A stretch of 64,000 nucleotides of DNA from an uncultured Acidobacteriota bacterium. GTDB taxonomy: Bacteria > Acidobacteriota > Thermoanaerobaculia > Multivoradales > JAHEKO01. Under the pieces are notes generated by a model. It was given only the letters and a program-made list of their open reading frames with translations. It searched no databases and was not told where the DNA came from. The translations under genes were made by a program, and so were the position numbers. The stretch is taken from NCBI GenBank assembly GCA_963713825.1, contig CAVQNG010000014.1, positions 160,001 to 224,000 of the forward strand. The letters run 5' to 3'. This document shows, piece by piece, positions 29,547 to 55,849 of the stretch. The number at the start of each line of letters is the position of its first letter. Position 1 is the first letter of the stretch.

Positions 29547-30941
29547 ATGAGCCGAGTCCAAGTGGCCACAGAGAAGATGAGATCGGTGGACCACGCCTGG
29601 CTGCGCATGGATGAACCGGCCAACCTGATGATGATCAACGGTGTGCTGTTCTTCGATCGCCCGTTGGTCCTGGATGAGGTGAAGAGGGTGCTGGGAGAAC
29701 GCCTTCTCGAGATCCCACGGTTCCAGCAAAGAGTCGTGGCCACGACGCGGGGTCAGAGATTCTCGTGGGAGCAGGACCCAACCTTCGACCTCGACTCGCA
29801 TGTCGTAGAAGAGACGTTGGCGTCACCGGGAGACGACGGTGCGCTGCAGAATCTCGTCAGCCATTGGATGAGCACCCCTCTCGACCGCGAGCGACCGCTT
29901 TGGATGTGTCATCTACTCCAGAACTACAAGGGTGGCTGTGCGCTCCTTTGGCGCATTCACCACTGCATGGGCGATGGTTTGGCTCTGATGCTGGTTCTTC
30001 TCTCGGTTACGGAGACGGAACCGCCTGATCCTGAGACCGCCAAAGAAGCCGTCAACCCACTCAGAGCCCTGTTCAGCGCGAACCCTCCGGGAAGGGAGGA
30101 GGCCCGTCGCTATCTCGAGCAGGTAATGCCAGCCGCGGTAGGGCTGCTGACGGGCCCGGCCGAAAAATTGGCAGCAGCGAGCAAGTGGATCAAGAGTGGG
30201 GTCTTTATGCCAACTTTCGGCCGCATGGCGGTGCGGCTTCCGGACCCGCGAACCGTGTTCAAAGGTCGTTTGGGTATTGCGAAGAGAGCGACATGGACCG
30301 AGCCTATCTCTCTGGATGACGTGCAGCGTGTGCGGCAAGCAATCGGTGGAACCCTGAATGACGTTCTGACGAATGCCGTTGCCGGCGGACTGAGGCGCTA
30401 TCTGGTCCGTCGTGGGGAGGTCAAGCACGAGCTGAGCTTTCGAGCCATCGTTCCGGTGAGCCTGCGGCCGCTGGAGCAGATGGCTCGGCTCGGCAACCAG
30501 TTCGGGCTCGTTTTTCTCTCTCTGCCGATCGGAATCGAGGATCCCAGAGAGCGCTTGGCGGAGCTGCAGCGCCGAATGGGGCGCCTGAAGCGCTCCTTCG
30601 AGCCGGTTGTGGTCTTGCAGGTCCTAGGGGCGCTAGGAGCTTCGCCGAACGCGATTCAGAAGCTGGTGGTGAAGATCTTCGGCACCAAGGGAACCGCTGT
30701 TCTGACCAATGTCCCAGGTCCTGAACGGACCTTGTACTTCACCGGCGAGCCCTTGAAGAGCTTCGTAATCTGGGTGCCTCAGTCGGCGAGGCTGGGCATG
30801 GGCATCGCCATCGTGAGCTACGCCGGCCAGGTACGGGTCGGCATTGCTACCGATCAGGGTTTGGTGGCCGATCCCGAGTCCATCGTGGCTGGATTTCACG
30901 AGGAGTTCTCGGCCATGTTGGACCTGGCAGAGCGAAGCTGA
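29547..30941 (+). CDS. Wax ester synthase/diacylglycerol acyltransferase (WS/DGAT)
   Basis: D.AWL.M, PLDRERPLW, catalytic HHCMGDG (HHxxxDG), TLNDV, PVSLR, GNQFG, TNVPGP and SYAG. Confidence 0.93.
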   Translation: MSRVQVATEKMRSVDHAWLRMDEPANLMMINGVLFFDRPLVLDEVKRVLGERLLEIPRFQQRVVATTRGQRFSWEQDPTFDLDSHVVEETLASPGDDGALQNLVSHWMSTPLDRERPLWMCHLLQNYKGGCALLWRIHHCMGDGLALMLVLLSVTETEPPDPETAKEAVNPLRALFSANPPGREEARRYLEQVMPAAVGLLTGPAEKLAAASKWIKSGVFMPTFGRMAVRLPDPRTVFKGRLGIAKRATWTEPISLDDVQRVRQAIGGTLNDVLTNAVAGGLRRYLVRRGEVKHELSFRAIVPVSLRPLEQMARLGNQFGLVFLSLPIGIEDPRERLAELQRRMGRLKRSFEPVVVLQVLGALGASPNAIQKLVVKIFGTKGTAVLTNVPGPERTLYFTGEPLKSFVIWVPQSARLGMGIAIVSYAGQVRVGIATDQGLVADPESIVAGFHEEFSAMLDLAERS

Positions 30942-37617: not shown

Positions 37618-38940
<1,323 letters not shown>

Positions 38941-39106
38941 GTCGTCTTTCCTCCCGGGTTGTGGAGTGCACGTCGCGTAGGGCTCCTTTAATCCTGGAAC
39001 AAACGACGCGTCGAAACATTTTGCTCCAGATTCCAGGCAGTGTAACCACCCAGTAGGGCGGTTTGCGGATCATTCATTTGATGGCATTTTTCTGCGAGAT
39101 AGTGTG

Positions 39107-39135
39107 TTGCGAGAAGCTAATACTTGGCGTATAAT
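39107..39135 (+). promoter_or_regulatory. Sigma70-type promoter of the MarR-kor-hdr operon
   Basis: TTGCGA (39107-39112), 17-bp spacer, perfect TATAAT (39130-39135), in an AT-rich gap within GC-rich sequence. Confidence 0.75.
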
Positions 39136-39137
39136 GC

Positions 39138-39169
39138 TTAACGCAGTTAAATACTTACGTGGTTAAGTA
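39138..39169. promoter_or_regulatory. Tandem palindromic operator sites, probably bound by the downstream MarR
   Basis: TTAAC-GCA-GTTAA (39138-39150) and TACTTA-CGTGGT-TAAGTA (39152-39169) lie between the -10 box and the ATG. Confidence 0.6.
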
Positions 39170-39170
39170 A

Positions 39171-39806
39171 ATGGCTCAAGTGGGTCTGGCATCCTCGCGA
39201 AGCAGCACGCGTGTCTCGGATGGCAACGGACACGACGAGGTCTTCCGCCTCCTACGTTTCTCACACATCTTCGCCTCGGTCGTCCGGGAATTCCTGGAAG
39301 TGCAGCTCCTCCACGAGGTCAGCGATGAAAATCTCTCTCTGTCGCAGTATCACCTCTTGAAGCTCATAACGCTGGATGGCGAGCACCAGATGGGGCAGGT
39401 GGCGGAGTTCCTGGGTATCAGTCCGCCGGCGGCGACCAAGAACATCGACAAGATGGAGCGCCTCGGTCTGGTCAGCCGCATGCCGTCGACAGGCGATCGG
39501 CGAGCCACGTTCCTGGAGCCCAGTCGACAGGGCCGCCAGCTGGTGAGCCGTTACGAGACACTGAAGGAATCGCGCTTGGCCCCGGTGCTCGAGTCTTTCT
39601 CCCAAAAAGAGTTGAAACAGATGGCAGATCTGTTGGAGCGTTTCTCGCTGCGGCTTATCCATCAGCAGGAGCCAATGTCACAGATTTGTCTGCGTTGTTC
39701 GGCCTACTACGACGAAAGTTGCCCAGTCCCCCATCTCCAAGACGGCTGCCCTTACAAGCAGGTCAAGGAGCACGGGGAAGCTGCGCAGTGCGAAGGGGAG
39801 GGTTGA
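39171..39806 (+). CDS. MarR-family transcriptional regulator with C-terminal four-Cys motif
   Basis: wHTH (LSLSQYHLL...VAEFLGISPPAATKNIDKMERLGLVSR...DRR) and C-terminal CLRC-x7-C-x8-C. Confidence 0.88.
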   Translation: MAQVGLASSRSSTRVSDGNGHDEVFRLLRFSHIFASVVREFLEVQLLHEVSDENLSLSQYHLLKLITLDGEHQMGQVAEFLGISPPAATKNIDKMERLGLVSRMPSTGDRRATFLEPSRQGRQLVSRYETLKESRLAPVLESFSQKELKQMADLLERFSLRLIHQQEPMSQICLRCSAYYDESCPVPHLQDGCPYKQVKEHGEAAQCEGEG

Positions 39807-39896
39807 AACTCAAGGCGATTGCACCGTTGACAAGCGCTTCGTCGTAAATGCGTCGCCGCGGTGCCGATAGGCAACTTGAAACCACGGGAGGGCGGC

Positions 39897-40220
39897 ATGA
39901 GGTATTGGCGAGTTCCTCTGGACGCGGGGCAGGTCGAGACCCCCGGGGGGGAGGTGCACATCCTCGTGGACCGATGCAAGGGCTGCGCGTTCTGCGTCGA
40001 GTACTGCCCCAGGCAGGTCCTCGAGATGTCACGGACTTTCAATCGCAAGGGCTACCATCCACCAGAGATCGTCGCAAGCGGGGCCTGCGTCAACTGCGGG
40101 CTGTGCGAGATGATCTGCCCCGAGTTCGCCATCTTCTGCATCGAGGCGGTGAGCTCGGCTGGGAATCCAAACGGAGTCTCCACATCTGTAGGTGCCGAGG
40201 CCGGGGAGGCGCGTCGATGA
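39897..40220 (+). CDS. 2-oxoacid:ferredoxin oxidoreductase delta subunit (2x[4Fe-4S] ferredoxin)
   Basis: CKGCAFCVEYCP and CVNCGLCEMICPEFAI; GGGAGG RBS; stop overlaps the alpha-subunit start (ATGA). Confidence 0.92.
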   Translation: MRYWRVPLDAGQVETPGGEVHILVDRCKGCAFCVEYCPRQVLEMSRTFNRKGYHPPEIVASGACVNCGLCEMICPEFAIFCIEAVSSAGNPNGVSTSVGAEAGEARR

Positions 40221-41374
40221 AAGCCGACCCGGCAGGTGTGCTTACTGGCTCTCATTACCTCGATGGTGACTTCGCTTGCGGCGAAGGGGCCATGGCGGCT
40301 GGCTGCCGATTCGTCGCCGGCTACCCGATCACCCCATCCACCGAAGTTGTCGAGCGCATAGCCAGGCGATTCCCGACGATCGGAGGCACCTTCATCCAGA
40401 TGGAGGATGAGTTGGCGAGCATGGCTGCCGTCGTCGGCGGGGCATGGACAGGTAGCAAGACCATGACGGTGACCAGTGGTCCGGGCTTCAGCCTCATGAT
40501 GGAGAACATCGGACTGGCCGCCATGATGGAGACGCCCTGTGTCGTCGTCAACGTGCAGCGAGGTGGGCCTTCCACCGGGCTGCCGACAATGGTTGGGCAG
40601 GGGGACGTGATGCAGGCCCGCTGGGGCTCTCATGGAGACTACGAGGTGATCGCCTTGAGCCCTCAATCGCCCCAGGAAGCCTTCGACCTCACAATCGACG
40701 CCTTCAACTTGGCCGAGATCTACAGAGTTCCCGTCATGTTCTTGATGGACGAATGTGTCGGGCACATGACTGAAAAGGTGGTGATTCCCAAGGCGGAGGC
40801 GATCGATATCGAACCCCGGCGACTGACCAGGAAGAAGCCGGAGGACTTCGATCCCTATCAGGTCTCCGACAACGAGCTGCCGGAGTTCGCCCGCGCCGGA
40901 GACGGCTACCGATTCCATACCACCGGTTTGACACACGATGAGCACGGCTATCCGGTGATGAGCGCCAAGTGCCAAGAGGTCAACGTGGGCCGCCTGGTCG
41001 GGAAGATCCGCGACAATGCAGAGAGCATCGTCCGCTTCGAAGAAGATGGGGTAGAGGATGCGGATGTTGTTGTCGTGTCCTACGGCATCACAGCCCGGGT
41101 GGCCAGGTTGGCAGTCGAGGAAGCGCGCGCGCAGGGCCTCAAGGTGGGCTTCCTTCGCTTGGTGGTGATCTGGCCGTTTCCGGAGAGGCGGATACGGCAG
41201 ATCGCAGGTTCCGTTGGCGCCTTTGTCGTGCCGGAGATCAACTATGGACAGATCGCTCTGGAAGTGGAGCGCGCCGCGGCTGGACAGGCCGTTACCTGGC
41301 CGGTCCACCATGCGGGCGGTGCCGTGCACTCGCCCGATGCGATCACTGAGATTATTGTCAAGGCGGCCGTATGA
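40217..41374 (+). CDS. korA: 2-oxoacid:ferredoxin oxidoreductase alpha subunit (2-oxoglutarate/KorA-like)
   Basis: GYPITPS, QMEDE, TSGPGFSLM.E and VQRGGPSTGLPT motifs. Substrate is inferred from context. Confidence 0.9.
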   Translation: MKADPAGVLTGSHYLDGDFACGEGAMAAGCRFVAGYPITPSTEVVERIARRFPTIGGTFIQMEDELASMAAVVGGAWTGSKTMTVTSGPGFSLMMENIGLAAMMETPCVVVNVQRGGPSTGLPTMVGQGDVMQARWGSHGDYEVIALSPQSPQEAFDLTIDAFNLAEIYRVPVMFLMDECVGHMTEKVVIPKAEAIDIEPRRLTRKKPEDFDPYQVSDNELPEFARAGDGYRFHTTGLTHDEHGYPVMSAKCQEVNVGRLVGKIRDNAESIVRFEEDGVEDADVVVVSYGITARVARLAVEEARAQGLKVGFLRLVVIWPFPERRIRQIAGSVGAFVVPEINYGQIALEVERAAAGQAVTWPVHHAGGAVHSPDAITEIIVKAAV

Positions 41375-42270
41375 CTGTGGCAACGAATCCGACTGGCAGC
41401 CAGGAGCGGGAGCACCCGAGTGCGCCGCTCTTGAGGATGGAGCGCATTCCGCATGTCTGGTGTCCGAGCTGCGGTATCGGCACGGTGGTCAAGTGCTATG
41501 CCACGGCGCTCGAGCGCAGCGGCGTGGATCTCGACAAGGTCTCGGTGGTGTCGGGCATCGGCTGCTCCGGCCGCGTCGCCGGCTATCTCAAGCTGGACGG
41601 TTTTCACACGACCCATGGAAGGGCCATTCCTTTTGCCACAGGGCTCAAACTGGGACGTCCCGAGCTGCTGGTAACCGTGATTTCAGGTGACGGTGACCTC
41701 GTGGGCATCGGCGGCAATCACTTCATTCACGCGGCACGCCGCAATATCGATCTGTTGGTCATCCTGATCAACAACTTCATTTATGGGATGACTGGGGGAC
41801 AAAACGCTCCGACGACGCCCCCGGGTGCTAGATCCTCGACGATGCCTTTGGGAAATTTCGAGACTCCTTTCAGTCTGCCCCATCTAGCGGCATCGAGCGG
41901 TGCCTCCTATGTGGCCCGTTGGACCTGCCTTCACATTCGCCGTCTCACCTGGTCGATCGAGGAGGCCATAGGCAAGAGGGGCTTCCGCTTCATCGAGGTC
42001 ATCGCGCCCTGTCCGACTCTCTACGCCCGCCTGAACAAGCTGGGATCAGGGCTCGATGCCATGCGCTTCTACCACGACACGGCCGAGATCCGGAACGGCG
42101 CCGACACTCGTGAGGTCGACGTCGAGTTCCAAAGCCCGATCATCTGCGGCAAGTTCGTCGACGAGGAGCGACCGACCTTCCTCGATCTGATGCACGACCA
42201 CTACAGCAAGCAGCTGGGTGATCGCTATGTTCCGATGCCGCCGGAAGGAGGAATGCTCCATGAGCGGTAG
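41371..42270 (+). CDS. korB: 2-oxoacid:ferredoxin oxidoreductase beta subunit (TPP-binding)
   Basis: WCPSCG, SGIGCS, HTTHGR, TPP motif GDGD...NN.IYGMTGGQ and PCPT. Confidence 0.92.
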   Translation: MTVATNPTGSQEREHPSAPLLRMERIPHVWCPSCGIGTVVKCYATALERSGVDLDKVSVVSGIGCSGRVAGYLKLDGFHTTHGRAIPFATGLKLGRPELLVTVISGDGDLVGIGGNHFIHAARRNIDLLVILINNFIYGMTGGQNAPTTPPGARSSTMPLGNFETPFSLPHLAASSGASYVARWTCLHIRRLTWSIEEAIGKRGFRFIEVIAPCPTLYARLNKLGSGLDAMRFYHDTAEIRNGADTREVDVEFQSPIICGKFVDEERPTFLDLMHDHYSKQLGDRYVPMPPEGGMLHER

Positions 42271-42853
42271 GACCGAGATCCGGATCACCGGCTTCGGAGG
42301 GCAGGGTGTGGTGCTCGCGGGCCATATCATCGGTCGCGCCTGCGCCATCCATGCGGATCGTCAGGCCACGATGATCCAGAGTTTCGGGCCGGAGGCCAGA
42401 GGCTCAGCCTGCAGTGCCACTCTCGTAGTCTCCGACCGCGAAGTCTTGTACCCGTATATCCAGCGTCCCGACATTTTTGTCGTGATGTCCTCGGAAGGCT
42501 ATGAGAAGTACGGGCGGGAGCTCAAAGAGGATGGGACCCTGGTTTTCGAGCAGGATCTTGTCCATCCCAGGACGGTGGAAGGGCAGCGGTACTTTGGAGT
42601 GCCTTCGACGCGCATCGCGGAGTCGTTGGGCCGGACGATCGTCCAGAACATCGTCATGGTGGGCTTCTTCGCCGGCGTCACCGATCTGGTTCCCGAAAAT
42701 GCTGTGCGCGACGCGGTCAAGGGGTCGGTACCAGCTGGTACCGAGGATCTGAATCTGGAAGCCTTCGAAAAGGGGCTGGAGTACGCCCGAGAATCGGTCG
42801 ATCAGCCATCAGTGAACGTCACCAGGCCAAGCCTCGAGGAGGTGAGCCCATGA
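42260..42853 (+). CDS. 2-oxoacid:ferredoxin oxidoreductase gamma subunit
   Basis: GFGGQG, QSFGPEARG, NIVMVG and N.EAF..G. Confidence 0.92.
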   Translation: MSGRTEIRITGFGGQGVVLAGHIIGRACAIHADRQATMIQSFGPEARGSACSATLVVSDREVLYPYIQRPDIFVVMSSEGYEKYGRELKEDGTLVFEQDLVHPRTVEGQRYFGVPSTRIAESLGRTIVQNIVMVGFFAGVTDLVPENAVRDAVKGSVPAGTEDLNLEAFEKGLEYARESVDQPSVNVTRPSLEEVSP

Positions 42854-45261
42854 CTGGGCCTGTTTGTCAGCTCGGAGCTGGTGCTCTCAATTTGGATGGC
42901 TGCAGTCTGTTGATTCCCGATGTGCAGTCCGAGCCGCTGCCGATCCTGCCGGTCGAACCGGCCCCCTGCACTCAGGCATGTCCCGCGGGCATCAACGTCA
43001 AGGCCTACGTCTCGCTGATCGCCGAGAGCCGGTTTGCAGAAGCCCTGCAGGTAGTTCGGCAACACTGTCCCCTGCCCGGAATCTGTGGTCGGATCTGTCA
43101 TCACCCATGTGAAGCGGTATGTCGCCGGGGAACCGTCGATGAGCCTATCGCTATCCGCGCCTTGAAGCGATTCGTCGCTGATCTCGCGGTTGCTGAGGCT
43201 CCACCTGCACCCTGGCCACTAGTTGACCAGGAAGCCAAGGTGGCAGTCGTAGGGTCTGGTCCGGCGGGCTTGACTGCCGCTTACGACCTGCGTCGCCTCG
43301 GGTATCCGGTGACGATCTTCGAAGCCGAGCCGGAGGCTGGAGGCATGCTGCGCTATGGAATCACCGAGTATCGGCTGCCCAGGGATGTTCTGGATACGGA
43401 GATCGGGTATCTCAGCGGGGTCGGTCTCAACTTTGAGACCGGTTGTCGCGTCGGGGTGGACCTGCAGTTGGAAGAGATGCTGGAGCAGGGCTTCGTGGCG
43501 ACCTTGCTGGCCGTGGGCGCTCAGCGCGGACGCCCTCTGAGAGTTCCTGGATCTGAGTCCTGTGCAGGAGTCGAGGATGCTCTGGCCTTCTTGCGTCGCG
43601 TCAACCACGGTGACCGATCGCTGGTAAGGGGTCGAGTCGTGGTGATCGGCGGCGGCTCGACAGCGGTCGAGGCGGCACGCTCGGCACTGCGCCTCGGCGC
43701 CGACTCCGTGGACATACTCTACCGGCGGTATCGTGAGGAGTTGTTGGCTGATGAGGAGGAGATCCGGGCAGCGGAGTCGGAGGGCATTGCGTTCAGATTC
43801 CTGGTGGCTCCAACTCGCCTGATCATGGGAGACGGGACTCTTCAGGCCCTGGAGTGCGTGAGGGTCGGACTGGGAGAACCAGATGCCTCGGGCCGGCGCA
43901 GACCCATCCAGATTCCAGGCAGCGAGTTCAGGGTAGAGACAGACCGAGTCCTGGCCGCTATCGGTCAGGCGGCCGATCTTGATTTCATGCCTCCCGAGAT
44001 CCTGTCACAACTGACGGAGAACGAATTGTTGCGGACCGATCCGCTGACAGCGATGACAGGCCTGCAGGGAGTTTTCGCGGCTGGCGATGCTGTCTCAGGC
44101 CCAGCGACGGTTATCGATGCTATCGCCGCCGGTCACAAGGCCGCCGAGGCGATTCATCACTATCTGGAGGAGGGCAGGCCCTCGATAGCATCGCAGCCGC
44201 CGGAGATGCGGGCACCGGTGGAATACGGTCTACCTGATTCACCGCCAGTGACCGCGGAGAGGGGTCGTCCTGAGCTCCGAAGCGTCAAGTCGGGCGCCGA
44301 ATTTGCGGAGGTGGAGAGGCCTTTCGAGAAAGCCGAGGCTGTGGACGAGGCGAGACGGTGCCTGCGTTGTGGGCCTTGCGGCGAGTGTCGTGTGTGCGCT
44401 CCTTCCTGCCGCCGACGCCACGTCCTGCTGCGGTTTCCCGATGGCGATGGAGCTGTCAGCCGGAGCCCGGTTCTGCTGCGAGCTCCAGGCAACGTCGCCA
44501 TGGGATTGAGCACTCGATCGACGGCACAGGCCCAGTTGTTGCCCGAGAGCCGTCCTCGGCTGCTGAGGGAGGTGTCGGCGAGCGAAGGTGACCTCGTGGA
44601 GATCGCGCCATTGAGGGTGCAGATTGTGGAGGAGCAATGTCGGGGGTGCGGTCGCTGTGTCGAGGTCTGTCCGTTCGATGCAATCACGATGAGCGGTACA
44701 GAGCCGGAGCGCACCGCTCGCGTCGAGCCCTCACTCTGCCGCGGCTGCAACCTCTGCTGCGCTGTCTGTCCAACTGCAGCTGCGGAGCCCAATGCCCTGT
44801 CTGTTGCCTGGTGGGGATCCAGGCTGTCCGACGCTTTCGACGGTCGAGCCGAGGCGGTCCATGAAGCCGGGCCCATCGTGGTTCTCGCATGTCAAAGGAG
44901 AGCTGGATCGGTGGAGCCGACCCTCTATCAACACTCAGCCCACGTCGAGGTGATCCGGTTCCGCTGTGTCGGCCAGGTCGATGCCGGGATGCTGGTCGAG
45001 CTCTACCGCAGAGGGGCGAGCAGCGTGCTCGTTGCCGGCTGCCAGACCGAGCGTTGTCGGTTCGGCGAGGGCGCCCAACTGGCTACCGAGCAGGTGGCCA
45101 GGGCGGAGAGGTTGATCTCCGTGATGGGGGGTGGCGCCAAGAGTCTGAGGTCGGATTGGTCTGAGGACCGAGCCGGCGACCCCATCGAGCTGCCCGTTCT
45201 ACGCATGATCGCGGAAGTCTTCGGGGCGCGTCCGGGCCTTTCCGGGCGAGAGCCCTCTTGA
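42850..45261 (+). CDS. FAD/NAD(P)H oxidoreductase (GltD/NfnB/SudA-like) fused to [4Fe-4S] ferredoxin and C-terminal MvhD-like [2Fe-2S] domains
   Basis: PC..ACP and CGRIC..PCE..C (Fer4_20); GSGPAG (FAD); GGGSTA and YRR (NADPH-type); FAAGD; RCLRCGPCGEC..C; CRGCGRCVEVCP and CRGCNLCCAVCP; C-terminal LAC...RFRCVGQVD...VAGC..E.CRF. Confidence 0.9.
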   Translation: MTGPVCQLGAGALNLDGCSLLIPDVQSEPLPILPVEPAPCTQACPAGINVKAYVSLIAESRFAEALQVVRQHCPLPGICGRICHHPCEAVCRRGTVDEPIAIRALKRFVADLAVAEAPPAPWPLVDQEAKVAVVGSGPAGLTAAYDLRRLGYPVTIFEAEPEAGGMLRYGITEYRLPRDVLDTEIGYLSGVGLNFETGCRVGVDLQLEEMLEQGFVATLLAVGAQRGRPLRVPGSESCAGVEDALAFLRRVNHGDRSLVRGRVVVIGGGSTAVEAARSALRLGADSVDILYRRYREELLADEEEIRAAESEGIAFRFLVAPTRLIMGDGTLQALECVRVGLGEPDASGRRRPIQIPGSEFRVETDRVLAAIGQAADLDFMPPEILSQLTENELLRTDPLTAMTGLQGVFAAGDAVSGPATVIDAIAAGHKAAEAIHHYLEEGRPSIASQPPEMRAPVEYGLPDSPPVTAERGRPELRSVKSGAEFAEVERPFEKAEAVDEARRCLRCGPCGECRVCAPSCRRRHVLLRFPDGDGAVSRSPVLLRAPGNVAMGLSTRSTAQAQLLPESRPRLLREVSASEGDLVEIAPLRVQIVEEQCRGCGRCVEVCPFDAITMSGTEPERTARVEPSLCRGCNLCCAVCPTAAAEPNALSVAWWGSRLSDAFDGRAEAVHEAGPIVVLACQRRAGSVEPTLYQHSAHVEVIRFRCVGQVDAGMLVELYRRGASSVLVAGCQTERCRFGEGAQLATEQVARAERLISVMGGGAKSLRSDWSEDRAGDPIELPVLRMIAEVFGARPGLSGREPS

Positions 45262-45272
45262 GGAGTGGAGCG

Positions 45273-46460
45273 ATGAGAGACCTCATCCAGCTCAAGCAAT
45301 CGACGCATGCCGCACTCTGCCTGGAGTGCGGCAAGTGCAGCACGATGTGTCCGCTGGCCCGCTTCGGAGGGTTCTCGGCAGCTCGCATGATGTCGATTCA
45401 GGACCCGGAGGCGGAGATTCACGGCCATGCGGCCGCGGTCCAGCGCTGTCTGACTTGCGGCGCCTGTGAGGTTCGTTGTCCGCAGGGCGTTCGTTACACG
45501 GAGTTCATTCTTGGATTGCGGCCCGAGCTGCCTGAAGAGACCCGATGGTCTTGCCCGCATGGAGCGGTGTTTCAGGAGTCCGCTCGCTGGGCTGCGGATG
45601 GGGCGGTCAACGGGCGCAATACCGCTTGGCTGGAAGACGACCTGTTGGTTGCCGAGGAGGGGGAAGTCGGGCTGTTCGTCGGTTGCCTACCTCTTTTCGA
45701 TGTCGTTTTCGGGACGGAACTGGAAGTACGCATGGTGGAGATTGCGCGCGCCGCCATCAGACTCCTGAACCACTTTGAAATCGAGCCGGTAATTGTGACG
45801 GACGAGCGCTGCTGTGGCCATGACCTCCTGTGGAGTGGTGAGGAGGAGGCTTTCGAGAAGCTGGCTGTGGCGAATACGACCGCTTTTCAGGAGCGGGGTG
45901 TGCGCCACCTCCTGACAACTTGTGCCGAGTGTTGTCGCACCTGGAGCCTCGACTACCCGCGGTATGTGGAGACCTATCAACCTCGAGTGCAGCATCTCTC
46001 GGAGTTCCTGGCGGAGCGCGTGGAGCGCGACGAGATGAGCTTCCGAGATCTCGGGGAGGCCGGCGTCATGACGTTCCACGATCCGTGCAGGCTGGGCAGA
46101 CAGCTGGGGGTCTTCGACGCCCCGAGGATCGTAATGAACTCCCTACCGGGAAGTGAAGTCGTAGAGATGGAGCGATCGGGCGCTGATGCACAGTGCTGTG
46201 GCACTCCCGGTTTCATTCAGTGCAATCGGGACTCGCGACGGCTGCAAGCCCAGAGACTGGAGAGCGCAGCGGCGACGGGCGCCACCAAGCTGGTCACCGC
46301 TTGTCCGAAGTGTTTGATTCACTTTCGGTGTGCCCAGGCCGAGGATCGTCTCAATGAACGGCAGGGCGCAGGGATTCAGATCCAAGACCTCACGGTCCTC
46401 GCCGCGAGTCTGCTGGCGACAAAGAGAGAAGCGGAGAAGGATTCACCGTCAGAGTGCTAG
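45273..46460 (+). CDS. Soluble heterodisulfide-reductase-like Fe-S protein (HdrD/HdrBC-like: 2x[4Fe-4S] + two CCG domains)
   Basis: CLECGKCSTMCP and CLTCGACEVRCP; FVGC...CCGH...CAEC and HDPC...CCG...CPKC; no TM helices. Confidence 0.9.
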   Translation: MRDLIQLKQSTHAALCLECGKCSTMCPLARFGGFSAARMMSIQDPEAEIHGHAAAVQRCLTCGACEVRCPQGVRYTEFILGLRPELPEETRWSCPHGAVFQESARWAADGAVNGRNTAWLEDDLLVAEEGEVGLFVGCLPLFDVVFGTELEVRMVEIARAAIRLLNHFEIEPVIVTDERCCGHDLLWSGEEEAFEKLAVANTTAFQERGVRHLLTTCAECCRTWSLDYPRYVETYQPRVQHLSEFLAERVERDEMSFRDLGEAGVMTFHDPCRLGRQLGVFDAPRIVMNSLPGSEVVEMERSGADAQCCGTPGFIQCNRDSRRLQAQRLESAAATGATKLVTACPKCLIHFRCAQAEDRLNERQGAGIQIQDLTVLAASLLATKREAEKDSPSEC

Positions 46461-46475
46461 AGACAGGAGAGGTTC

Positions 46476-48956
46476 ATGACAGACCAAGCCTTGCGAATCG
46501 GTGTCTTCGTTTGCGATTGCGGACTGAACATCGCCGGCACAGTGGATACAGAAGAGGTAGCACGCTTTGCCGCCGACCTTCCCGATGTGGTCGCCGTGGT
46601 GCGCAATCGCTACACCTGCGCCGATCCGGGGCAGAACGAAATCAAGAAGGCCATCGCGGAGCACGATTTGAACCGGGTCGTGGTGGCATCCTGCACCCCG
46701 AAGATCCACGAACCGACCTTCCGCCACTGCGTGGCGGACACCGGGCTGAATCCCTATCTGGTCGAGATGGCCAACATACGAGAGCACTGCAGCTGGGTTC
46801 ACATTCAAGACCGGGAAGCGGCCACCGAGAAGGCGAAGGACCTGGTCCGCAGCGCGGTCGGGCGATCTCGGCTGCTGGAGCCTCAAGACGAGAAGATCTT
46901 CCCAGTGACGGACGCGGCGCTGGTGATCGGCGGCGGCGTGGCTGGCATCCAGGCGGCTCTCGAGCTGGCTGATGGTGGCCACCAGGTTTACCTGGTGGAG
47001 AAGGAACCCTCCATCGGCGGGCTCATGGCTGCGCTGGACAAGACATTCCCGACCATGGACTGCTCTATATGAATTCTCGGCCCTAAAATGATGGATGCCG
47101 GTCGGCATCCCCGCATCGAGTTACTGGTTGATTCCGAGGTCGAGAACATCACGGGCTTCGTAGGGAACTACAACGCCCAAGTACGTCGCCGCGCTCGCTT
47201 CGTCGACAGCGACGAATGCACCTCTTGTGGTGAATGCGAGAAAGTCTGCCCTGTGACCGTTGCTGACGAGTATCAGCAGGGCCTCTCTTCGCGCAAGGCC
47301 ATCTACCTACCTTTTCCGCAGGCAGTGCCTTCGGCCTTTAGCCTCGATGCCGAGTCCTGTCTGGGTTTCAATCCGATTGCCTGTGGCAAGTGCCTCGAGG
47401 TCTGCGACAAGAAGTGCATCGATTTCGATGCCACGGACGAGATCCGCGATCTCGAAGTGGGGACGGTCGTCGTTGCTACCGGAATGGAGGTCTACGACCC
47501 GCGAGAGAACGACGAGTACGGCTATACGCGATTCCCGAACGTCGTCACCAGCATGGAATTCGAGAGGTTGATCAACGCTGGTGGACCCACGGATGGAGAG
47601 TTGGTCCGACCTTCCGACCGCGAGGTGCCTTTGCGGGTCGGCTTCGTTCAGTGTGTCGGCTCTCGGTCCCTCCAACGCGGCGTGCCCTACTGCTCGAACA
47701 TCTGTTGCATGAATACGATCAAGGAGACGCTGCTGCTGGCAGACCATTTCCCGGAGAGTCGATCAACGGTCTACTACATGGATATCCGGGCCTTCGGCAA
47801 GGGCTTCGAGGACCTGTATCGGCGAAGTCGTGAGGCGGGCGTGCGCTACGTCAGAGGATTGCCTGGCAACGTGAGAGAGGCGCCCGAGTCCAACGACCTC
47901 ATCGTCGAGGTCGAGAACACGCTCACCGGAACGATGGAGGAGCATCGACTCGACATGCTGGTTCTGGCGGTAGGGATGGTGCCGCGGCGATCTAACGGCG
48001 ACGGCAAGCGAAGCATCGACGAGATCCTGAGCCTGTCGCACACCTCGGACGGTTTCGTCATGGAGGCCCACCCCAAGCTGAAGCCGGTCGATGCTCCGAC
48101 CCGCGGGGTCTATTTTGCCGGCTGCGTCGAGTCACCCAAGGACGTCAAGGACTCCGTTACCCAGGCAGGTGCCGCTGCCGGCAGAGCGGGCAACCTGTTG
48201 GGTGGCGGACAAGTGCGAATCGAGGCCATCACGGCGACGCTGGATGCGGATCGCTGTCAGCTCTGCACCATTTGTGCTCGTGTCTGTCCGTTTCACGCCA
48301 TCGAGCAAGCGGATAAGAAGAAGGGTCTTCTGCCGCAGTTCGTCGAGGCGGCCTGCGCGGGTTGCGGTACCTGCGCGGCGGAGTGTCCATTCGATGCCAT
48401 CGACATGCGTCATTTCGCTGACAGCCAGGTCCTGGCCCAAATCGATGGCATCTTGGCCGACAATCCGCTGCAGAAGATCGTCGGCTTCGCGTGCAACTGG
48501 TGCTCTTACGCGGGCGGGGATAACGCCGGAACCTCACGCCTCCAGTACCCGGCATCCGTTCGCCTCATCCGCACCATGTGCAGCGGCAGAGTCGACCAGG
48601 CCTTTATTTGGCACGCCTTTCGGAAGGGAGCGCCGCTGGTGTTGGTGTCGGGCTGCCACTTTACAGACTGCCATTACATCGACGCGGTGACTTGGACGCA
48701 GAAGCGAATAGAGAAAATCTGGTCGAAGATGGAAAAACTCGGCATCCGCCCCGAACGACTCCAGTTGGAGTGGATCTCGGCGGCGGAAGGTCAGAAGTTC
48801 GCTCGCGTCATGCAGGAGCTGGACAGCATGCTGCGGCAGGTAACGCCAAAGGAGGTCGAGGAGGGCATGCGAATTCTCGCCGAGGAAGACCTGGGAGCTG
48901 GTGTTCCCAAACTCCCGAAGAAGCGTAGAGAGCCGGTTCTCCCGATCCAGAACTGA
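46476..48956 (+). CDS. hdrA: Heterodisulfide reductase subunit A (HdrA) fused to MvhD; probable selenoprotein (Sec199, TGA at 47070-47072), 826 aa
   Basis: ORFs 46476..47072 and 47088..48956 are in one frame, separated only by TGA within [18 protein letters not shown] (canonical DC..CIL.P.M). HdrA motifs [34 protein letters not shown] and GC..SPKD; ferredoxin inserts; C-terminal MvhD (CNWCSYAG...MCSGRVD...GCHFTDCHY). Confidence 0.92.
47088..47116 (+). promoter_or_regulatory. Putative bacterial SECIS element
   Basis: Perfect hairpin GGATGCCG-GT-CGGCATCC (47093-47110; equivalently a 7-bp stem with GGUC loop), apex about 28 nt after the UGA. Possible lower pairing of ATG 47088-90 with CAT 47114-16. 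Confidence 0.75.
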
Positions 48957-48979
48957 AGAACCATAAGAGGGATTCGATC

Positions 48980-49174
48980 ATGGCCAAGCAGATCAAGACG
49001 TTCTACTGTCTTCGCTGCCAGCATCGTTTTGCGATGGGTCATGACCCCAAAGAGGTGGTGGAGCGCAGCTGTCCACGATGTGGCAGCAACAGCGTCAGAT
49101 TGGAGACACCACAGGCTGCTGCCAGTCAAGCCTCTTTGGGGACGAGCAAAACCGGAAAAGGAGGGGTTGTATGA
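48980..49174 (+). CDS. Small zinc-ribbon/rubredoxin-like protein (FmdB-like)
   Basis: FYCLRC...CPRCGS; AGAGGG RBS; stop overlaps the next start (ATGA). Confidence 0.75.
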   Translation: MAKQIKTFYCLRCQHRFAMGHDPKEVVERSCPRCGSNSVRLETPQAAASQASLGTSKTGKGGVV

Positions 49175-49644
49175 CGACAGTGGTATCCCAAAAGTGGATC
49201 GACGATGTCCTCGAGGAGCACAAGAGGCTTCGGGTGATGATTGCCGAGGTGCGACAGATCCTGACCGAGCCGAGGCCGGATGCCGGCCAGCCTGGAGCCC
49301 ATTCCTGGGCCGCCGATCTTTCGGTGCGTCTGGTCAGGCTCCATGACGAGCTGTTTCGCCACTTTCGCTTCGAAGAGTCCATGGGGCTAGTGGAAGATGT
49401 CATCGAGCGCCATCCTCGCGCTCTGGCAAGGCTCGAGGCGATCGTTGGCCAGCACCCGGACATGCTGCGTGACCTCAGGTCGATCATGACTGACGCTCTG
49501 ACCTACTCAGAGGGAAGCCTGCCGGAGGATCCTCGACTGCGGCAGAGGACGTTGACCTTGCTCGATGAGCTGCATCAGCACGAGCAGGAGGAGACCGACC
49601 TGTTTCAACGCCTGGAGTATCGAGACCAAGGCGCGATGGACTGA
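49171..49644 (+). CDS. Hemerythrin-like (HHE cation-binding) protein
   Basis: Helical protein with EEH, HF..EE, QH and HE..E metal-ligand pattern; GGAGG RBS. Confidence 0.8.
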   Translation: MTTVVSQKWIDDVLEEHKRLRVMIAEVRQILTEPRPDAGQPGAHSWAADLSVRLVRLHDELFRHFRFEESMGLVEDVIERHPRALARLEAIVGQHPDMLRDLRSIMTDALTYSEGSLPEDPRLRQRTLTLLDELHQHEQEETDLFQRLEYRDQGAMD

Positions 49645-49858
49645 ATTGCGGAGCCCCTGCCAGTCTCACGGGGTGGGTCCTCAGCCCACCCAGGAAGGTG
49701 TTCAAAGGCGCCGCCGAGCTTGAGAACATAGCTCGGGTAAGGGCGAGGCCTCTGGTCGAATTCAGGCCCCGCGGACGGATACCCGGAAATCCAAGGGTCG
49801 GGCACGTCGAACCAGCTGGGTTCCGGCTGCCGTCAGGCCCCAACCGAAGGAGCGTCCT

Positions 49859-50743
49859 ATGGCGACAAAGGAACAATTCGTGGACACCTTTGTGGAGCTG
49901 ATACGGCGGGCATCGGCCGAGCTGCCGCCCGATGTCGTAGCGGCTCTCGAGCAGGGTAGGGACCAGGAAGCGACAGAGAGCCTGGCGCGCCAGGCACTGG
50001 TCACGATTCTCGACAATGTCGAGCTGGCCAAAGCCAAGTCGGCGCCGATCTGTCAGGACACAGGCACCCCCGTGGCCTGGGTCAGCTATCCCGAGGGGAC
50101 TAGCACCCGCTTGCTCGAACAGGCTATGCACGAGGCGGTCAGGGAGGCGACTGCCAAGAGTTATCTGCGTCCCAACGCCGTCGATACGCTGACGGGAAGA
50201 AACACCGGTGATGGCTCGGGCCGAGCCATTCCATTTCTGCATTTCGAGGAATGGGACGAGCCGAGGGTCGAGGTGCGACTGATCCTGAAGGGCGGGGGCT
50301 GCGAGAACGTCGGTGTGCAGTACAAGCTGCCTGATAGTGGTCTCCAGGCGGGGCGAGATCTGGAGGGCGTTCGACGGGTTGTTCTGGACGCGGTCGTCCA
50401 GGCCCAGGGAAAGGGCTGCGCTCCCGGCGTCCTGGGTGTCTGCATCGGAGGGGATCGGGTATCGGGATTCTCGGAGTCCAAATGTCAGCTTCTGCGTCCA
50501 CTCTCTGACACCCATCCGGTGCCGGAGTTGGCCGCAATGGAGGAGCGGTTGCTGAAGGAAGCCAACGAGTTGGGGATCGGCCCGATGGGGTTTGGCGGCC
50601 AGACCACGGTTCTGGGAGTCAAGATCGGTGTTCTGGACCGTCTGCCAGCTTCGTACTTTGTGACCATCAGCTACATGTGTTGGGCTGATCGGCGAGCCGC
50701 TGTCAGCCTCGACGAGGAAGGAGCGGCGACATGGCTGAACTGA
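49859..50743 (+). CDS. Class I fumarate hydratase / L-tartrate dehydratase alpha subunit
   Basis: PICQDTG, LRPN, KGGGCEN, GC.PG, N.LGIGPMGFGG.TT and CWA.RR. Confidence 0.92.
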   Translation: MATKEQFVDTFVELIRRASAELPPDVVAALEQGRDQEATESLARQALVTILDNVELAKAKSAPICQDTGTPVAWVSYPEGTSTRLLEQAMHEAVREATAKSYLRPNAVDTLTGRNTGDGSGRAIPFLHFEEWDEPRVEVRLILKGGGCENVGVQYKLPDSGLQAGRDLEGVRRVVLDAVVQAQGKGCAPGVLGVCIGGDRVSGFSESKCQLLRPLSDTHPVPELAAMEERLLKEANELGIGPMGFGGQTTVLGVKIGVLDRLPASYFVTISYMCWADRRAAVSLDEEGAATWLN

Positions 50744-51318
50744 GCCTGCCTGTGGACGAAAGGACGGTGCGGGAACTGAAAGTAGGTGATGGTGTCGAGT
50801 TGACAGGCCGCATGATCACCGGCCGCGATGCCGCCCACAAGTGGTTGCTGGAGGACTATCGTGAAGAGGTAGCCCCCTATCTCGAGGGAACTGTCATCTA
50901 TCACTGCGGTCCGGTGGTGCGTCAACTGGACGATGGCACCTACGAGTTCGTGGCTGCTGGCCCCACGACCTCCATTCGAGAGGAGCCCTATCAGGCCGAT
51001 GTGATCGAAAAGTACGGTCTGAGAGGGGTCATTGGAAAGGGCGGCATGGGGCTACAGACTCTCGCTGGCCTCGAGAAGAGCGGTGCCCTGTATCTGCACG
51101 CTGTTGGTGGGGCGGCGCAGGTCCTGGCCCAGGCGGTACGGAAGGTCGAGCGAGTCTTCATGCTCGAGGAGTTCGGGGTTCCCGAAGCACTATGGGTCAT
51201 CGACGTGGTCAGGTTCCCCGTCATGGTGACGATGGATGCTCGGGGTGGATCGCTCCACACAGAGGTCGAGAAGAGCTCGAAAGCGCAGTTCGAGCGGCTA
51301 CTCGCCACGACAGCGTGA
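50731..51318 (+). CDS. Class I fumarate hydratase / L-tartrate dehydratase beta subunit
   Basis: GRDAAH, YHCGP, AGPTTS.R, IGKGGM, G.PEA and D..G.SL. Confidence 0.92.
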   Translation: MAELSLPVDERTVRELKVGDGVELTGRMITGRDAAHKWLLEDYREEVAPYLEGTVIYHCGPVVRQLDDGTYEFVAAGPTTSIREEPYQADVIEKYGLRGVIGKGGMGLQTLAGLEKSGALYLHAVGGAAQVLAQAVRKVERVFMLEEFGVPEALWVIDVVRFPVMVTMDARGGSLHTEVEKSSKAQFERLLATTA

Positions 51319-51340
51319 AACTCCATCAGTGCAGATTTCC

Positions 51341-51370
51341 AGGCCCGGCATTGGACCGGGCCTTTTCTTT
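51341..51370 (+). terminator. Intrinsic terminator after the fumarase genes
   Basis: AGGCCCGG-CATTGGA-CCGGGCCT followed by TTTCTTT. Confidence 0.8.
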
Positions 51371-51374
51371 GGCT

Positions 51375-54359: not shown

Positions 54360-54361
54360 CG

Positions 54362-55849
<1,488 letters not shown>

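Follow-up and report, generated by a model that had tools for sequence, protein, structure and literature searches.

Which redox carriers are connected by a heterodisulfide reductase (Hdr)-type gene set that stands, with no hydrogenase at its side, directly behind the genes of a 2-oxoacid:ferredoxin oxidoreductase (Kor)? The question is raised by a stretch of 64,000 nucleotides, here called the window, from the genome of an uncultured Acidobacteriota bacterium (assembly GCA_963713825.1, contig CAVQNG010000014.1, positions 160,001 to 224,000). Between positions 39171 and 51318 of the window, twelve genes follow each other on the forward strand: a MarR-family regulator, korDABG, an 803-aa fusion of a GltD/NfnB-like flavoprotein with ferredoxin and MvhD domains (hereafter the fusion), an HdrC-HdrB protein with two CCG motifs (the CCG protein), an HdrA joined to an MvhD domain, a zinc-ribbon protein, a hemerythrin and the alpha and beta subunits of a class I fumarase. 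Bifurcation based on HdrA has been described in methanogens, in sulfate reducers, in acetogens and in a small number of autotrophic symbionts. Judged from the encoded proteins, this module probably specifies a complex of the HdrA type that is linked to NADP(H), bifurcates or confurcates electrons and is redox-coupled to a Kor of its own, which makes the module a candidate new link between the citric acid cycle and electron bifurcation.

Conservation of the gene module

The gene calls across the region are based on the list of open reading frames (ORFs) and on Pfam and NCBIfam scans, and they recovered, in the forward orientation, every gene of the co-oriented run described in the initial annotation. 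ATGA-type overlaps were observed at the korD/korA, korA/korB, korG/fusion and zinc ribbon/hemerythrin junctions; korB/korG and fusion/CCG overlap as well, and the gaps measure 15 nt between the CCG and HdrA genes, 23 nt between HdrA and the zinc ribbon and 214 nt between hemerythrin and fumA. From korD through hemerythrin the genes overlap or lie no more than 23 nt apart, the gap before fumA being the only long one, and the run is one operon-like module. It had been said to close at a terminator, and a terminator-like hairpin does lie just 3' of fumB (Table 1). Pfam families of hydrogenases, formate dehydrogenases, Flx-type proteins, DsrC and membrane anchors had no match among the 47 scanned ORFs of the window, in agreement with the absence of hydrogenase, formate dehydrogenase, FlxAB, DsrC and anchor reported before.

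Fifteen homologues of the 803-aa fusion were aligned, and with this alignment one genome of each GTDB species was scanned. The scan revealed 181 stretches encoding a relative; the best 80 of these 181 were kept, and the twelve window proteins were placed on them by tblastn. Seven loci with an insertion-type HdrA (L055, L061, L065, L068, L074, L076 and L080) were set aside, and the counts given here are over the remaining 73, considering for each gene only the loci with enough sequence on the relevant side. The link to Kor claimed in the initial annotation proved near-invariant, since korG lies directly upstream of the fusion in 66 of 66 loci and korDABG is complete in 53 of 55. The CCG protein follows the fusion in 57 of 59 loci, and HdrA is present in 44 of 47. 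Beyond this core, the zinc ribbon alone is conserved as well, downstream of hdrA in 39 of 44. MarR stands upstream in 30/52 loci, hemerythrin is present in 15/42, and fumA lies downstream in 4/36. The gene-neighbourhood check that had been suggested for korABGD, GltD-MvhD, CCG and hdrA thus revealed a block that recurs in dozens of genomes with conserved synteny, an arrangement that is far more than chance. The fumarase genes, which had been counted in the run, are present here but lie outside the conserved block and are a local addition to the module.

All carriers are metagenome-assembled genomes (MAGs) or single-amplified genomes. They are labelled Thermoanaerobaculia and other Acidobacteriota, Phycisphaerae/Planctomycetota, Eisenbacteria, Krumholzibacteriia, Polarisedimenticolia, Marinimicrobia/Neomarinimicrobiota/Fidelibacterota, Calditrichaceae, Nitrospiria and Polyangiaceae, with one 'Deltaproteobacteria' MAG, and across these labels the identity to the window proteins is 63-93% for HdrA, 58-94% for KorA, 35-92% for the fusion and 32-90% for the CCG protein. 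Of 301 genomes sampled within the class of the window, 4 have the full-length fusion; the other 40 matches cover the GltD-like part only. This patchy distribution, together with the conservation of the block, suggests a self-contained, horizontally transferred unit, and we infer that the module moves as a block between bacterial phyla.

In the seven loci set aside, a GltD-like module, 41-49% identical to the window fusion, is inserted within HdrA itself; a second HdrA-like gene adjoins and no kor is nearby. The union of the two parts in one chain suggests that they work together, and the lack of kor indicates that the kor link is specific to the split architecture found in the window. The hosts of the insertion-type loci are labelled Chloroflexota (Dehalococcoidia, Chloroflexia), Myxococcales, 'delta proteobacterium' and Phycisphaerales.

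HdrA and its selenocysteine

HdrA passes the NCBIfam HdrA2 model NF040770 with 1144 bits against a cut-off of 1100, over positions 1-776 of 777 (U read as C). Against the solved chain 5odc_A it scores 767.7 bits, residues 6-662 aligning to positions 4-652 of 654 with their Cys motifs in register, and the similarity is full-length, taking in the N-terminal cluster, the thioredoxin-reductase-like flavin adenine dinucleotide (FAD) domain and the inserted and C-terminal ferredoxin domains. The tail of the protein is MvhD, with 137.8 bits to 5odc_D on residues 667-796. Instead of separate HdrB and HdrC partners, both are fused in the 400-aa CCG protein.

Codon 199 of hdrA is an in-frame TGA. Among the 52 matches to the surrounding motif in the window and the 80 related loci, all 51 from split-type modules carry TGA, and the lone TGC belongs to an HdrA of the insertion type. 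The position corresponds to Sec197 of Methanococcus maripaludis HdrA, which a 2026 cryo-EM study places, paired with a Cys, between the bifurcating FAD and cluster A3 (PMC13518236; here and below, papers given by PMC identifier are cited from excerpts). A hairpin resembling a selenocysteine insertion sequence (SECIS) starts 24 nt after the TGA and is kept in 36 of 36 aligned sequences (of 51 available). One of its pairs covaries (C-G in 19 sequences, U-A in 14 and U-G in 3), exchanging Ala for Val on one side and a synonymous Arg codon on the other, and its GGUC loop is, we take it, similar to that of the E. coli fdhF SECIS. Folding the stretch after the TGA by itself gives nothing better than shuffled sequence does (z -0.73, equalled by 42 of 200 shuffles), so that the hairpin is put forward on comparative grounds only; an Rfam scan of positions 38000-52500 gave 0 matches at E up to 1. 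The genome encodes SelA. The TGA in 51 of 51 modules, the covarying hairpin, SelA, the alignment to a Cys of 5odc_A and the match to Sec197 together make the decoding of this codon as selenocysteine (Sec) well supported by sequence.

The fusion and the CCG protein as predicted points of electron entry or exit

The fusion contains Fer4_20 (residues 38-115), Pyr_redox_2 (130-428), a 2x[4Fe-4S] ferredoxin domain (590-645) and FlpD/MvhD (693-774). Residues ~30-441 match NfnB-type PDB chains (4ylf_B with 298.9 bits, 5jca_L with 288.1 bits), the N-terminal half also matches Stn/Nfn-like enzymes of the PDB, and the two [4Fe-4S] clusters, the FAD and the NADPH site of an NfnB subunit are all indicated by this similarity and by the Fer4_20 and Pyr_redox_2 domains. 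The motifs GGGSTA and YRR and the Cys residues at 504-520, 597-640, 681, 706, 731 and 736 are invariant in 15 of 15 homologues. The Arg pair of YRR would bind the 2'-phosphate. The pattern GxGxxA is reported to mark NADP rather than NAD (PMC12054007). Since GGGSTA and YRR are kept and GxGxxA indicates NADP, the GltD-like module would be of the NADP(H) type.

The genome (5.42 Mb, 96.4% complete) contains only two MvhD domains, both in the module. An Mvh-type hydrogenase can therefore not be the donor, and the fusion, which has an MvhD of its own, is the natural point of electron entry or exit. An NAD(P)H module had been proposed to take the place of the hydrogenase; a GltD/NfnB flavoprotein with its own MvhD does sit in this place, with a function predicted from its sequence, and the replacement is backed by the finding that no Mvh-type partner exists anywhere in the 96%-complete genome.

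In the CCG protein, HdrC-like clusters at residues 18-136 are followed by both CCG domains in one chain, the first motif comprising C143, C185, C186, C222 and C225 and the second C277, C313, C314, C349 and C352. The Cys residues of both 4Fe-4S and both C...CC...CxxC motifs are invariant or nearly so in 19 of 19 homologues; since all cluster motifs are kept, we regard the protein as a catalytic-grade, HdrD-like subunit and not as a relic. Its closest solved relative is 9ojn_A, a 1042-aa 'iron-sulfur-binding reductase', and its top NCBIfam matches, TfrB, LdhH and GlpC, are all below their cut-offs. An assignment as TfrB was rejected, because the curated model NF004898, with a cut-off of 385, gives 141.8 bits, over positions 128-466 of its 488, and the N-terminal [2Fe-2S] SdhB-like domain is absent. 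A partnership with an anchor-less fumarate reductase is ruled out in this genome, since its two SdhAB sets both have membrane anchors (hydrophobic genes or an Sdh_cyt match).

The NCBIfam model NF045663 ('diclust_near_Sec', 759 positions), described as pyridine nucleotide-disulfide oxidoreductase/dicluster-binding protein, matches both the GltD-like N-terminus of the fusion (profile positions 16-198) and the CCG region of the CCG protein (458-614). The double match points to a protein elsewhere that unites GltD and CCG in one chain, by which parts of the module would be connected through gene fusion a second time.

The genome encodes two CCG proteins only, the 400-aa protein of the module and a 669-aa protein. 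The latter (contig C25, ~191.5-193.5 kb; L083:5497-7506) begins with ~280 residues that have no Pfam match and continues with a 4Fe-4S dicluster, followed by two CCG domains; around it stand unrelated genes, those of ZnuA and a tricorn-like protease.

The Kor enzyme and its substrate

All four subunits of Kor are present, with the POR_N, TPP_enzyme_C, POR and 2x[4Fe-4S] domains expected of them. Among solved structures, KorA matches 1yd7_A (361 bits) and 8ys5_A, a '2-oxoglutarate synthase subunit alpha' (269 bits), and it passes the generic alpha model NF006412. The best-named matches of the enzyme are Kor/Oor models at scores below cut-off (alpha 373 against 579, beta 230 against 364, delta 67 against 125), and the top match of KorB is the beta subunit of 2-oxoglutarate ferredoxin oxidoreductase (229.6 bits, cut-off 364). 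The context, with citrate synthase, glutamate dehydrogenase and fumarase, favours 2-oxoglutarate as the substrate. The initial annotation had tied this Kor to 2-oxoglutarate; the four-subunit enzyme stands, and 2-oxoglutarate is a candidate substrate, the 2-oxoglutarate-specific models all scoring below cut-off.

The ATG of korD is preceded by GGGAGGG and its homologues align from residue 1. The ORF of korG opens at 42218, and its likely start is the ATG at 42260, behind an AAGGAGG ribosome-binding site. An ORF of 508 aa at 39848-41374 is an artefact whose first ~120 residues run out of frame over korD; gene callers that favour long ORFs would lose korD under it.

Genome context

Downstream of the module the window encodes a glutamate dehydrogenase, and Pfam matches nearby include a gamma-glutamyltranspeptidase, an M1 peptidase and a Na:alanine symporter. 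In the other loci the flanks vary, but genes of the tricarboxylic acid (TCA) cycle recur: citrate synthase in both L022 and L077, joined in L022 by malate dehydrogenase and aconitase. The E1 subunit of 2-oxoglutarate dehydrogenase (OGDH) has no match in the 96.4%-complete genome. Four POR_N proteins are encoded, including a pyruvate:ferredoxin oxidoreductase (PFOR) and a KorAB-like pair of two subunits that adjoins a fragment of isocitrate dehydrogenase. The genome also contains two COX1-family oxidases, two RnfD/NqrB-type genes and NiFe hydrogenase genes, the latter on other contigs. The ATP-citrate lyase family PF16114 had no match in the genome, nor in 14 control genomes, which makes this search uninformative. 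Near-identical DNA occurs in sequencing runs of 13 studies, with sample labels such as sediments and salt marshes, and the module hosts belong to lineages that are presumably heterotrophic. The picture is one of sediment and salt-marsh heterotrophs at oxic-anoxic boundaries.

Proposed mechanism and its alternatives

The mechanism proposed here is modelled on the solved Mvh-Hdr complexes and on HdrA2B2C2. The GltD-like FAD would exchange hydride with NADP(H), and single electrons would travel through the Fe-S clusters of the fusion and the [2Fe-2S] cluster of an MvhD domain to the flavin of HdrA, where electron pairs would be split or merged between a low- and a high-potential branch. The low-potential branch would lead from the ferredoxin domains of HdrA to ferredoxin (Fd) or KorD and on to the thiamine pyrophosphate (TPP) site of Kor, at which 2-oxoglutarate and succinyl-CoA + CO2 are interconverted, and the high-potential branch would lead over the HdrC-like clusters to the CCG site and a thiol/disulfide couple. 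Run forward, the reaction 2 NADPH + Fd(ox) + RSSR -> 2 NADP+ + Fd(red) + 2 RSH would feed 2-oxoglutarate synthesis. Run backward, electrons of ~-500 mV from 2-oxoglutarate oxidation would lift a second, high-potential pair to NADPH. In the oxidative direction HdrA would take the low-potential electrons of Kor, and these would end in NADPH and/or a disulfide, their energy not being wasted.

Such a coupled function is preferred because the cofactor motifs are intact, the block is conserved, fusions of GltD within HdrA exist, the genome offers no other MvhD partner and HdrA2B2C2 provides a precedent. The oxidative direction appears the likelier of the two, with a chance we put slightly above even, because the organism is heterotrophic, genes for citrate synthase and glutamate dehydrogenase are close by, TCA-cycle genes also flank the module in L022 and L077, OGDH E1 was found neither here nor in 31 of 42 other module-bearing genomes, and COX1-family oxidase genes are present here and in 33 of 42 module genomes. 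Several points weigh against this view. The Kor-Hdr module is known from genes alone, and all four Kor subunits stay below the cut-offs of the 2-oxoglutarate-specific models. No thiol carrier, DsrC-like protein, thiol:fumarate reductase or disulfide- or thiol-forming enzyme is conserved beside the module in the related loci. OGDH E1 accompanies the module in 11 of the 42 other genomes, MAGs whose completeness is not given. The oxidative cycle might instead depend on the second KorAB-like pair, and this Kor would then be free for another role. The COX1 count is an upper bound for oxygen respiration because PF00115 also covers nitric oxide reductases. Finally, the published proposals for Hdr-Kor clusters assume, in the excerpts cited, the reductive direction (PMC6315080, PMC8542988).

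That the module runs reductively, with NADPH bifurcation paid for by disulfide reduction and Kor acting as a 2-oxoglutarate synthase serving either a TCA cycle of the reverse or reversed-oxidative kind or, under anoxia, the anaplerotic synthesis of glutamate, is a possibility of clearly lower rank. The characterised Mvh/Fdh-HdrABC complexes run towards ferredoxin reduction and some are wired directly to a CO2-fixing enzyme (PMC13518236, PMC13580544), the proposals made for the Flx-Hdr-Kor-Tfr clusters (PMC6315080, PMC11636981, PMC13147460) and for Mvh-Hdr with 2-oxoglutarate:ferredoxin oxidoreductase (OGOR) and thiol:fumarate reductase (TFR; PMC8542988) are reductive, the second KorAB-like enzyme is available for an oxidative cycle, and the fumarase lies within the same transcription unit here. 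However, citrate synthase, glutamate dehydrogenase and genes of peptide and amino-acid uptake surround the module, no thiol:fumarate reductase was found (the two CCG proteins being the only ones of the genome, and both SdhAB sets being anchored), and no ATP-citrate lyase domain was matched, in the search that left the controls equally silent. The hosts are also, to our general knowledge, heterotrophic lineages, and the continuous source of disulfide that this direction demands would be unexplained. It is unlikely, in turn, that the module is a non-bifurcating system of thiol redox or oxidative stress, in which Kor ferredoxin or NADPH would reduce a thiol or protein disulfide at the CCG site under control of the MarR protein with its four Cys residues, helped by hemerythrin and the rubredoxin-like zinc ribbon in hosts at oxic-anoxic interfaces. 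HdrA2B2C2 does reduce heterodisulfide with reduced ferredoxin alone (PMC5296606), the four Cys residues of MarR are invariant in 33 of 33 homologues, the overlap of the hemerythrin start with the zinc-ribbon stop suggests coupled translation, COX1-family genes are present in 33/42 module genomes, and a rubrerythrin gene appears in a figure legend on the rTCA/Hdr clusters (rTCA, reverse TCA) of tubeworm symbionts (PMC6315080). Still, hemerythrin and MarR occur in 15/42 and 30/52 loci against a near-universal kor, no candidate substrate is encoded nearby, and, for a plain disulfide reductase, two MvhD domains and a complete HdrA, with its obligatory Sec and both ferredoxin domains, would be elaborate.

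We give the same low probability to an exchange of electrons between the CCG subunit and the quinone pool or a succinate/fumarate enzyme, as thought for SdhE- and GlpC-type CCG subunits, in which case no disulfide would be involved and the high-potential couple would be menaquinone or fumarate/succinate. The ranking of TfrB (141.8 bits), LdhH and GlpC as the top NCBIfam matches of the CCG protein fits this idea, and so do the fumarase in the window operon, the fumarase next to a second korAB upstream of the Marinimicrobia-type loci L046, L054 and L075, and the fumarate acceptor proposed for the Endoriftia cluster (PMC13147460); the TfrB score is, however, far under the cut-off of 385 and the [2Fe-2S] domain is missing, both SdhAB sets of the genome carry anchors of their own, and the fumarase link is not conserved (4 of 36 loci). 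Mere co-location, with Kor and the Hdr-type proteins independent of each other and sharing a regulator and a pool of reduced ferredoxin, is very improbable. Ferredoxin is indeed a diffusible carrier, but korG stands immediately before the fusion in 66 of 66 loci, and in the window the stop codon of the one overlaps the start codon of the other, the block is kept across phyla while being patchy within the class (full-length fusion in 4 of 301 genomes), and the insertion-type HdrA loci have no kor, so that the link is specific to the split architecture.

An NADP(H)-linked, HdrA-type complex coupled to Kor thus remains our preferred explanation; the initial annotation had read the parts correctly, and its mechanistic idea is the best at hand. 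It can be extended, by analogy with the Hdr-formylmethanofuran dehydrogenase of methanogens, to a Kor-Hdr supercomplex, an idea that we regard as rather doubtful. In it, the low-potential arm of the Sec-HdrA would be wired into the Fe-S chain of Kor without free ferredoxin, giving an NADPH-linked, reversible 2-oxoglutarate step in heterotrophs of many phyla that respire oxygen; the zinc ribbon would be an extra subunit, the high-potential partner would differ from the heterodisulfide of methanogens and might be, for example, a protein thiol or a quinone, and the whole would be a horizontally mobile, energy-conserving replacement of OGDH. A complex prediction of the zinc ribbon with the CCG protein and the C-terminal ferredoxin and MvhD parts of HdrA and of the fusion, each given as an alignment, reached 0.77; two controls with a replaced partner gave 0.00, but replacing the CCG chain still gave 0.68, hence the value is unspecific and speaks neither for nor against binding.

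Comparison with known systems

Among described enzymes, HdrA2B2C2 of Methanosarcina acetivorans ('type Ia' in PMC12054007) shares with the module an HdrA with a C-terminal MvhD and the lack of a hydrogenase. It bifurcates from F420H2 and also reduces F420 and heterodisulfide with reduced ferredoxin, so that its MvhD-fused HdrA can pass ferredoxin electrons to a hydride carrier and a disulfide without bifurcation (PMC5296606). The module, known from its genes, is likened to it in that a hydride carrier of ~-320 to -380 mV would be the middle-potential partner and reduced ferredoxin would be accepted (PMC5296606). In the window, however, electrons would enter through a separate 803-aa NADP(H)-type protein and not from F420, HdrB and HdrC are fused, HdrA has an obligatory selenocysteine and the module is tied to kor. 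The disulfide must also differ from that of the methanogen, because the hosts are bacteria without coenzyme M (CoM) and coenzyme B (CoB) metabolism.

Gene clusters that join Hdr to OGOR have been reported before. In the rTCA clusters of tubeworm symbionts, Thioflavicoccus and Chromatiaceae, flxABCD-hdrABC is interspersed with korABCD and tfrAB (PMC6315080, PMC11636981, PMC13147460); direct electron delivery to OGOR and fumarate reductase was proposed (PMC6315080), co-expression of Flx-Hdr-Kor-Tfr was described (PMC11636981), the clusters are discussed in PMC13147460, and fumarate was suggested as the acceptor for the Endoriftia cluster (PMC13147460). These clusters resemble the module in that a putative bifurcating Hdr is tied to a four-subunit OGOR with a pyridine nucleotide, and not H2, as the donor, and they are likewise known, as far as the excerpts tell, only from gene clusters and transcript data. 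Their donor is of the Flx type and hdrB and hdrC are separate, whereas the window has a GltD/NfnB-type donor and a fused HdrB-HdrC, which also sets it apart from FlxABCD-HdrABC proper. They stand with or beside thiol:fumarate reductase, ATP-citrate lyase, PntAB and Rnf, none of which is in the window, and their hosts are autotrophic sulfur oxidisers. In Ca. Celaenobacter (Cloacimonadota), Mvh-Hdr is clustered with OGOR, TFR, fumarase and succinyl-CoA synthetase (PMC8542988). Here too Hdr is joined to OGOR and fumarase, but the cluster is hydrogenase-driven, contains a thiol:fumarate reductase and was proposed for an H2-driven rTCA cycle (PMC8542988).

Type III HdrA, into which a GltD/NfnB domain is inserted, is reported from ANME-1 and Bathyarchaeota (PMC9012536, PMC12054007), and HdrL of Desulfobacterium autotrophicum is a GltD-inserted HdrA as well (PMC2702500). 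In these proteins, as in the window, HdrA and MvhD are combined with an NAD(P)H module of the GltD kind; type III HdrA is one polypeptide with GltD inside the inserted ferredoxin domain, whereas the window has two proteins, each with an MvhD. The insertion-type loci found here, which correspond to type III HdrA, have no adjoining kor, and the one motif found in them has Cys and not Sec. MvhADG-HdrABC (5odc; PMC13518236) shares with the module the HdrA core, MvhD as the entry adaptor and the Sec/Cys pair by the flavin, and the Mvh-Hdr supercomplexes with formylmethanofuran dehydrogenase (PMC13580544) share the idea of a low-potential branch wired into a CO2-handling enzyme. The module is distinct from them in lacking hydrogenase and formate dehydrogenase (MvhA and MvhG have no Pfam match among the 47 scanned window ORFs), in its fused HdrBC, in its partner, a 2-oxoacid oxidoreductase, and in its bacterial, mostly COX1-bearing hosts. 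With NfnAB and the Sporomusa-type Stn (4ylf, 5jca, 8oh5) it has in common the N-terminal 440-510 residues of the fusion, which are of the NfnB/GltD type with two [4Fe-4S] clusters; the fusion adds a C-terminal ferredoxin and MvhD, its partner is HdrA, and no gene for NfnA (PyrK-like FAD/[2Fe-2S]) is among the 47 scanned ORFs of the window, the search having been confined to these and not made genome-wide. Class II benzoyl-CoA reductase includes the tungsten reductase BamB/C, the NuoEFG-like BamGHI and the HdrA-like BamE. The families of BamB/C and BamGHI have no Pfam match among the 47 scanned ORFs.

The initial annotation had considered the architecture new. The exact arrangement was indeed not found described in the literature searched, a search that left out supplements and the review of HdrA modules by Appel et al. 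2021, but the coupling of Hdr and kor had already been proposed, in the excerpts cited (PMC6315080, PMC11636981, PMC8542988). Hdr-OGOR gene coupling, GltD-HdrA fusions and HdrA-MvhD fusions are already known. The combination that was not found described is that of a separate GltD/NfnB-Fd-MvhD protein, a Sec-containing HdrA-MvhD, a fused HdrCB and a zinc ribbon behind korDABG, often also under a MarR with four Cys residues, in mostly oxidase-bearing heterotrophs and with neither fumarate reductase nor hydrogenase.

The module places an HdrA of nearly methanogen grade (768 bits against solved HdrA) in heterotrophs of sediment and ocean that mostly bear COX1-family genes, with a selenocysteine that is never replaced by Cys in the split-type modules, and locks this HdrA to an enzyme of the citric acid cycle. 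If the proposed function is true, it would explain how users of an oxygen-sensitive Kor that lack 2-oxoglutarate dehydrogenase recover the extra energy of electrons of ~-500 mV or, alternatively, how NADPH drives reductive carboxylation. An NADPH-type input module would then join the short list of Hdr electron donors, and the question would arise which disulfide is reduced by the CCG site in bacteria that have neither CoM nor CoB. Being compact (8-9 genes), highly conserved and self-contained, the module is suited to heterologous expression and cryo-EM.

Feature coordinates, accessory genes and transcription

Table 1. Position of the genes and sequence signals of the module in the window, with the similarity or pattern that supports each of them.
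Feature	Position	Strand	Support
Citrate synthase, divergent from marR	37618..38940	-	Pfam Citrate_synt 8.7e-136
Sigma-70-like promoter match upstream of marR	39107..39135	+	10/12 consensus positions; consensus match only
MarR-family regulator	39171..39806	+	Pfam MarR 2.7e-15
korD, delta (2x[4Fe-4S]) subunit	39897..40220	+	NCBIfam OGOR_delta 66.7 bits, below cut-off 125
korA, alpha subunit	40217..41374	+	Pfam POR_N 3.5e-71 + PFOR_II; NF006412 550 bits, cut-off 411
korB, beta (TPP) subunit	41371..42270	+	Pfam TPP_enzyme_C 2.7e-29
korG, gamma subunit	42260..42853	+	Pfam POR 2.4e-33
Fusion, GltD/NfnB-like FAD/NADP(H) flavoprotein + Cys cluster + 2x[4Fe-4S] + MvhD, 803 aa	42850..45261	+	Pfam Fer4_20, Pyr_redox_2, Fer4_21, FlpD
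CCG protein, HdrC-HdrB fusion (HdrD-like), 400 aa, two CCG motifs	45258..46460	+	Pfam CCG 2.5e-24 (2 stretches), Fer4_8; PDB HdrC + HdrB chains
HdrA (Sec at codon 199) fused to MvhD, 826 aa	46476..48956	+	NCBIfam HdrA2; PDB 5odc_A/5odc_D; Pfam FlpD 9.2e-45
In-frame TGA read as Sec	47070..47072	+	Motif DCSIUILGPK; aligns with second Cys of CSIC in 5odc_A
SECIS-like hairpin, 7-bp stem, GGUC loop	47093..47110	+	Comparative alignment
4-Cys zinc-ribbon or rubredoxin-like protein, 64 aa	48980..49174	+	Zn_ribbon_8 22.7 bits, below cut-off
Hemerythrin HHE-domain protein (accessory)	49171..49644	+	Pfam Hemerythrin 4e-8, 34.2 bits, cut-off 25.3
Class I fumarate hydratase alpha (fumA)	49859..50743	+	Pfam Fumerase 9.5e-77
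Class I fumarate hydratase beta (fumB)	50731..51318	+	Pfam Fumerase_C 1.1e-47
Intrinsic-terminator-like hairpin with T tail	51341..51363	+	8 pairs, 7 G-C; best such hairpin, directly after fumB

The C-terminus of the MarR protein displays the motif C-x2-C-x7-C-x8-C (CLRCSAYYDE.CP....L..GCPY; Cys173, 176, 184 and 193), which could be a redox or oxygen sensor binding an Fe-S cluster or Zn; we know of no such motif in characterised MarR proteins. In the zinc ribbon the residues F8, C10, C13, E28, R29, C31, C34, S36, N37, S38 and R40 are invariant in 19 of 19 homologues. The hemerythrin ORF opens at 49078, and its most likely start is the ATG at 49171, which overlaps the zinc-ribbon stop.

Short contigs on the module genes were found in two metatranscriptome libraries of different studies, with 0-11 letters differing from the window. 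They lie on korA (362 nt, 4 other letters and 2 gaps), across the korB/korG junction (254 nt, 4 other letters), on the fusion (474 nt with 11 other letters and 218 nt with 5), across the fusion/CCG junction (251 nt, 5 other letters), on hdrA (261 nt, 1 other letter) and on hemerythrin (176 and 190 nt, with 0 and 1 other letters). Libraries of RNA can contain DNA, the contigs reveal neither strand nor level, and nothing follows from the stretches left uncovered, among them the fumarase genes and the greater part of the CCG gene; the contigs give a weak hint that the module is expressed.

One MAG (isolate MFD09779.bin.2.66) contains two complete modules on two contigs (L005 and L019), with fusions 85% and 63% identical to that of the window, representing either two paralogous modules or a binning mixture. 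A second, distant korAB, with 31-33% and 40-48% identity, lies ~4-9 kb upstream on the opposite strand in the Marinimicrobia-type loci L046, L049, L054, L069 and L075, and the fumA/fumB genes beside it in three of these loci, mentioned above, belong to another phylum and occupy a different position than those of the window. Directly downstream of the module and convergent with fumB, the window encodes a 1031-aa protein (51375-54470, reverse strand) with a response-regulator receiver domain and a PPDK_N (PEP-utilising, ATP-binding) domain. Further upstream lie a wax-ester synthase/DGAT (29547-30941, forward strand) and a protein of the ADP-forming acyl-CoA synthetase type (24154-26445, forward strand; ATP-grasp_5, CoA_binding_2 and Succ_CoA_lig), which, from its domains, could make ATP from succinyl-CoA or acetyl-CoA.

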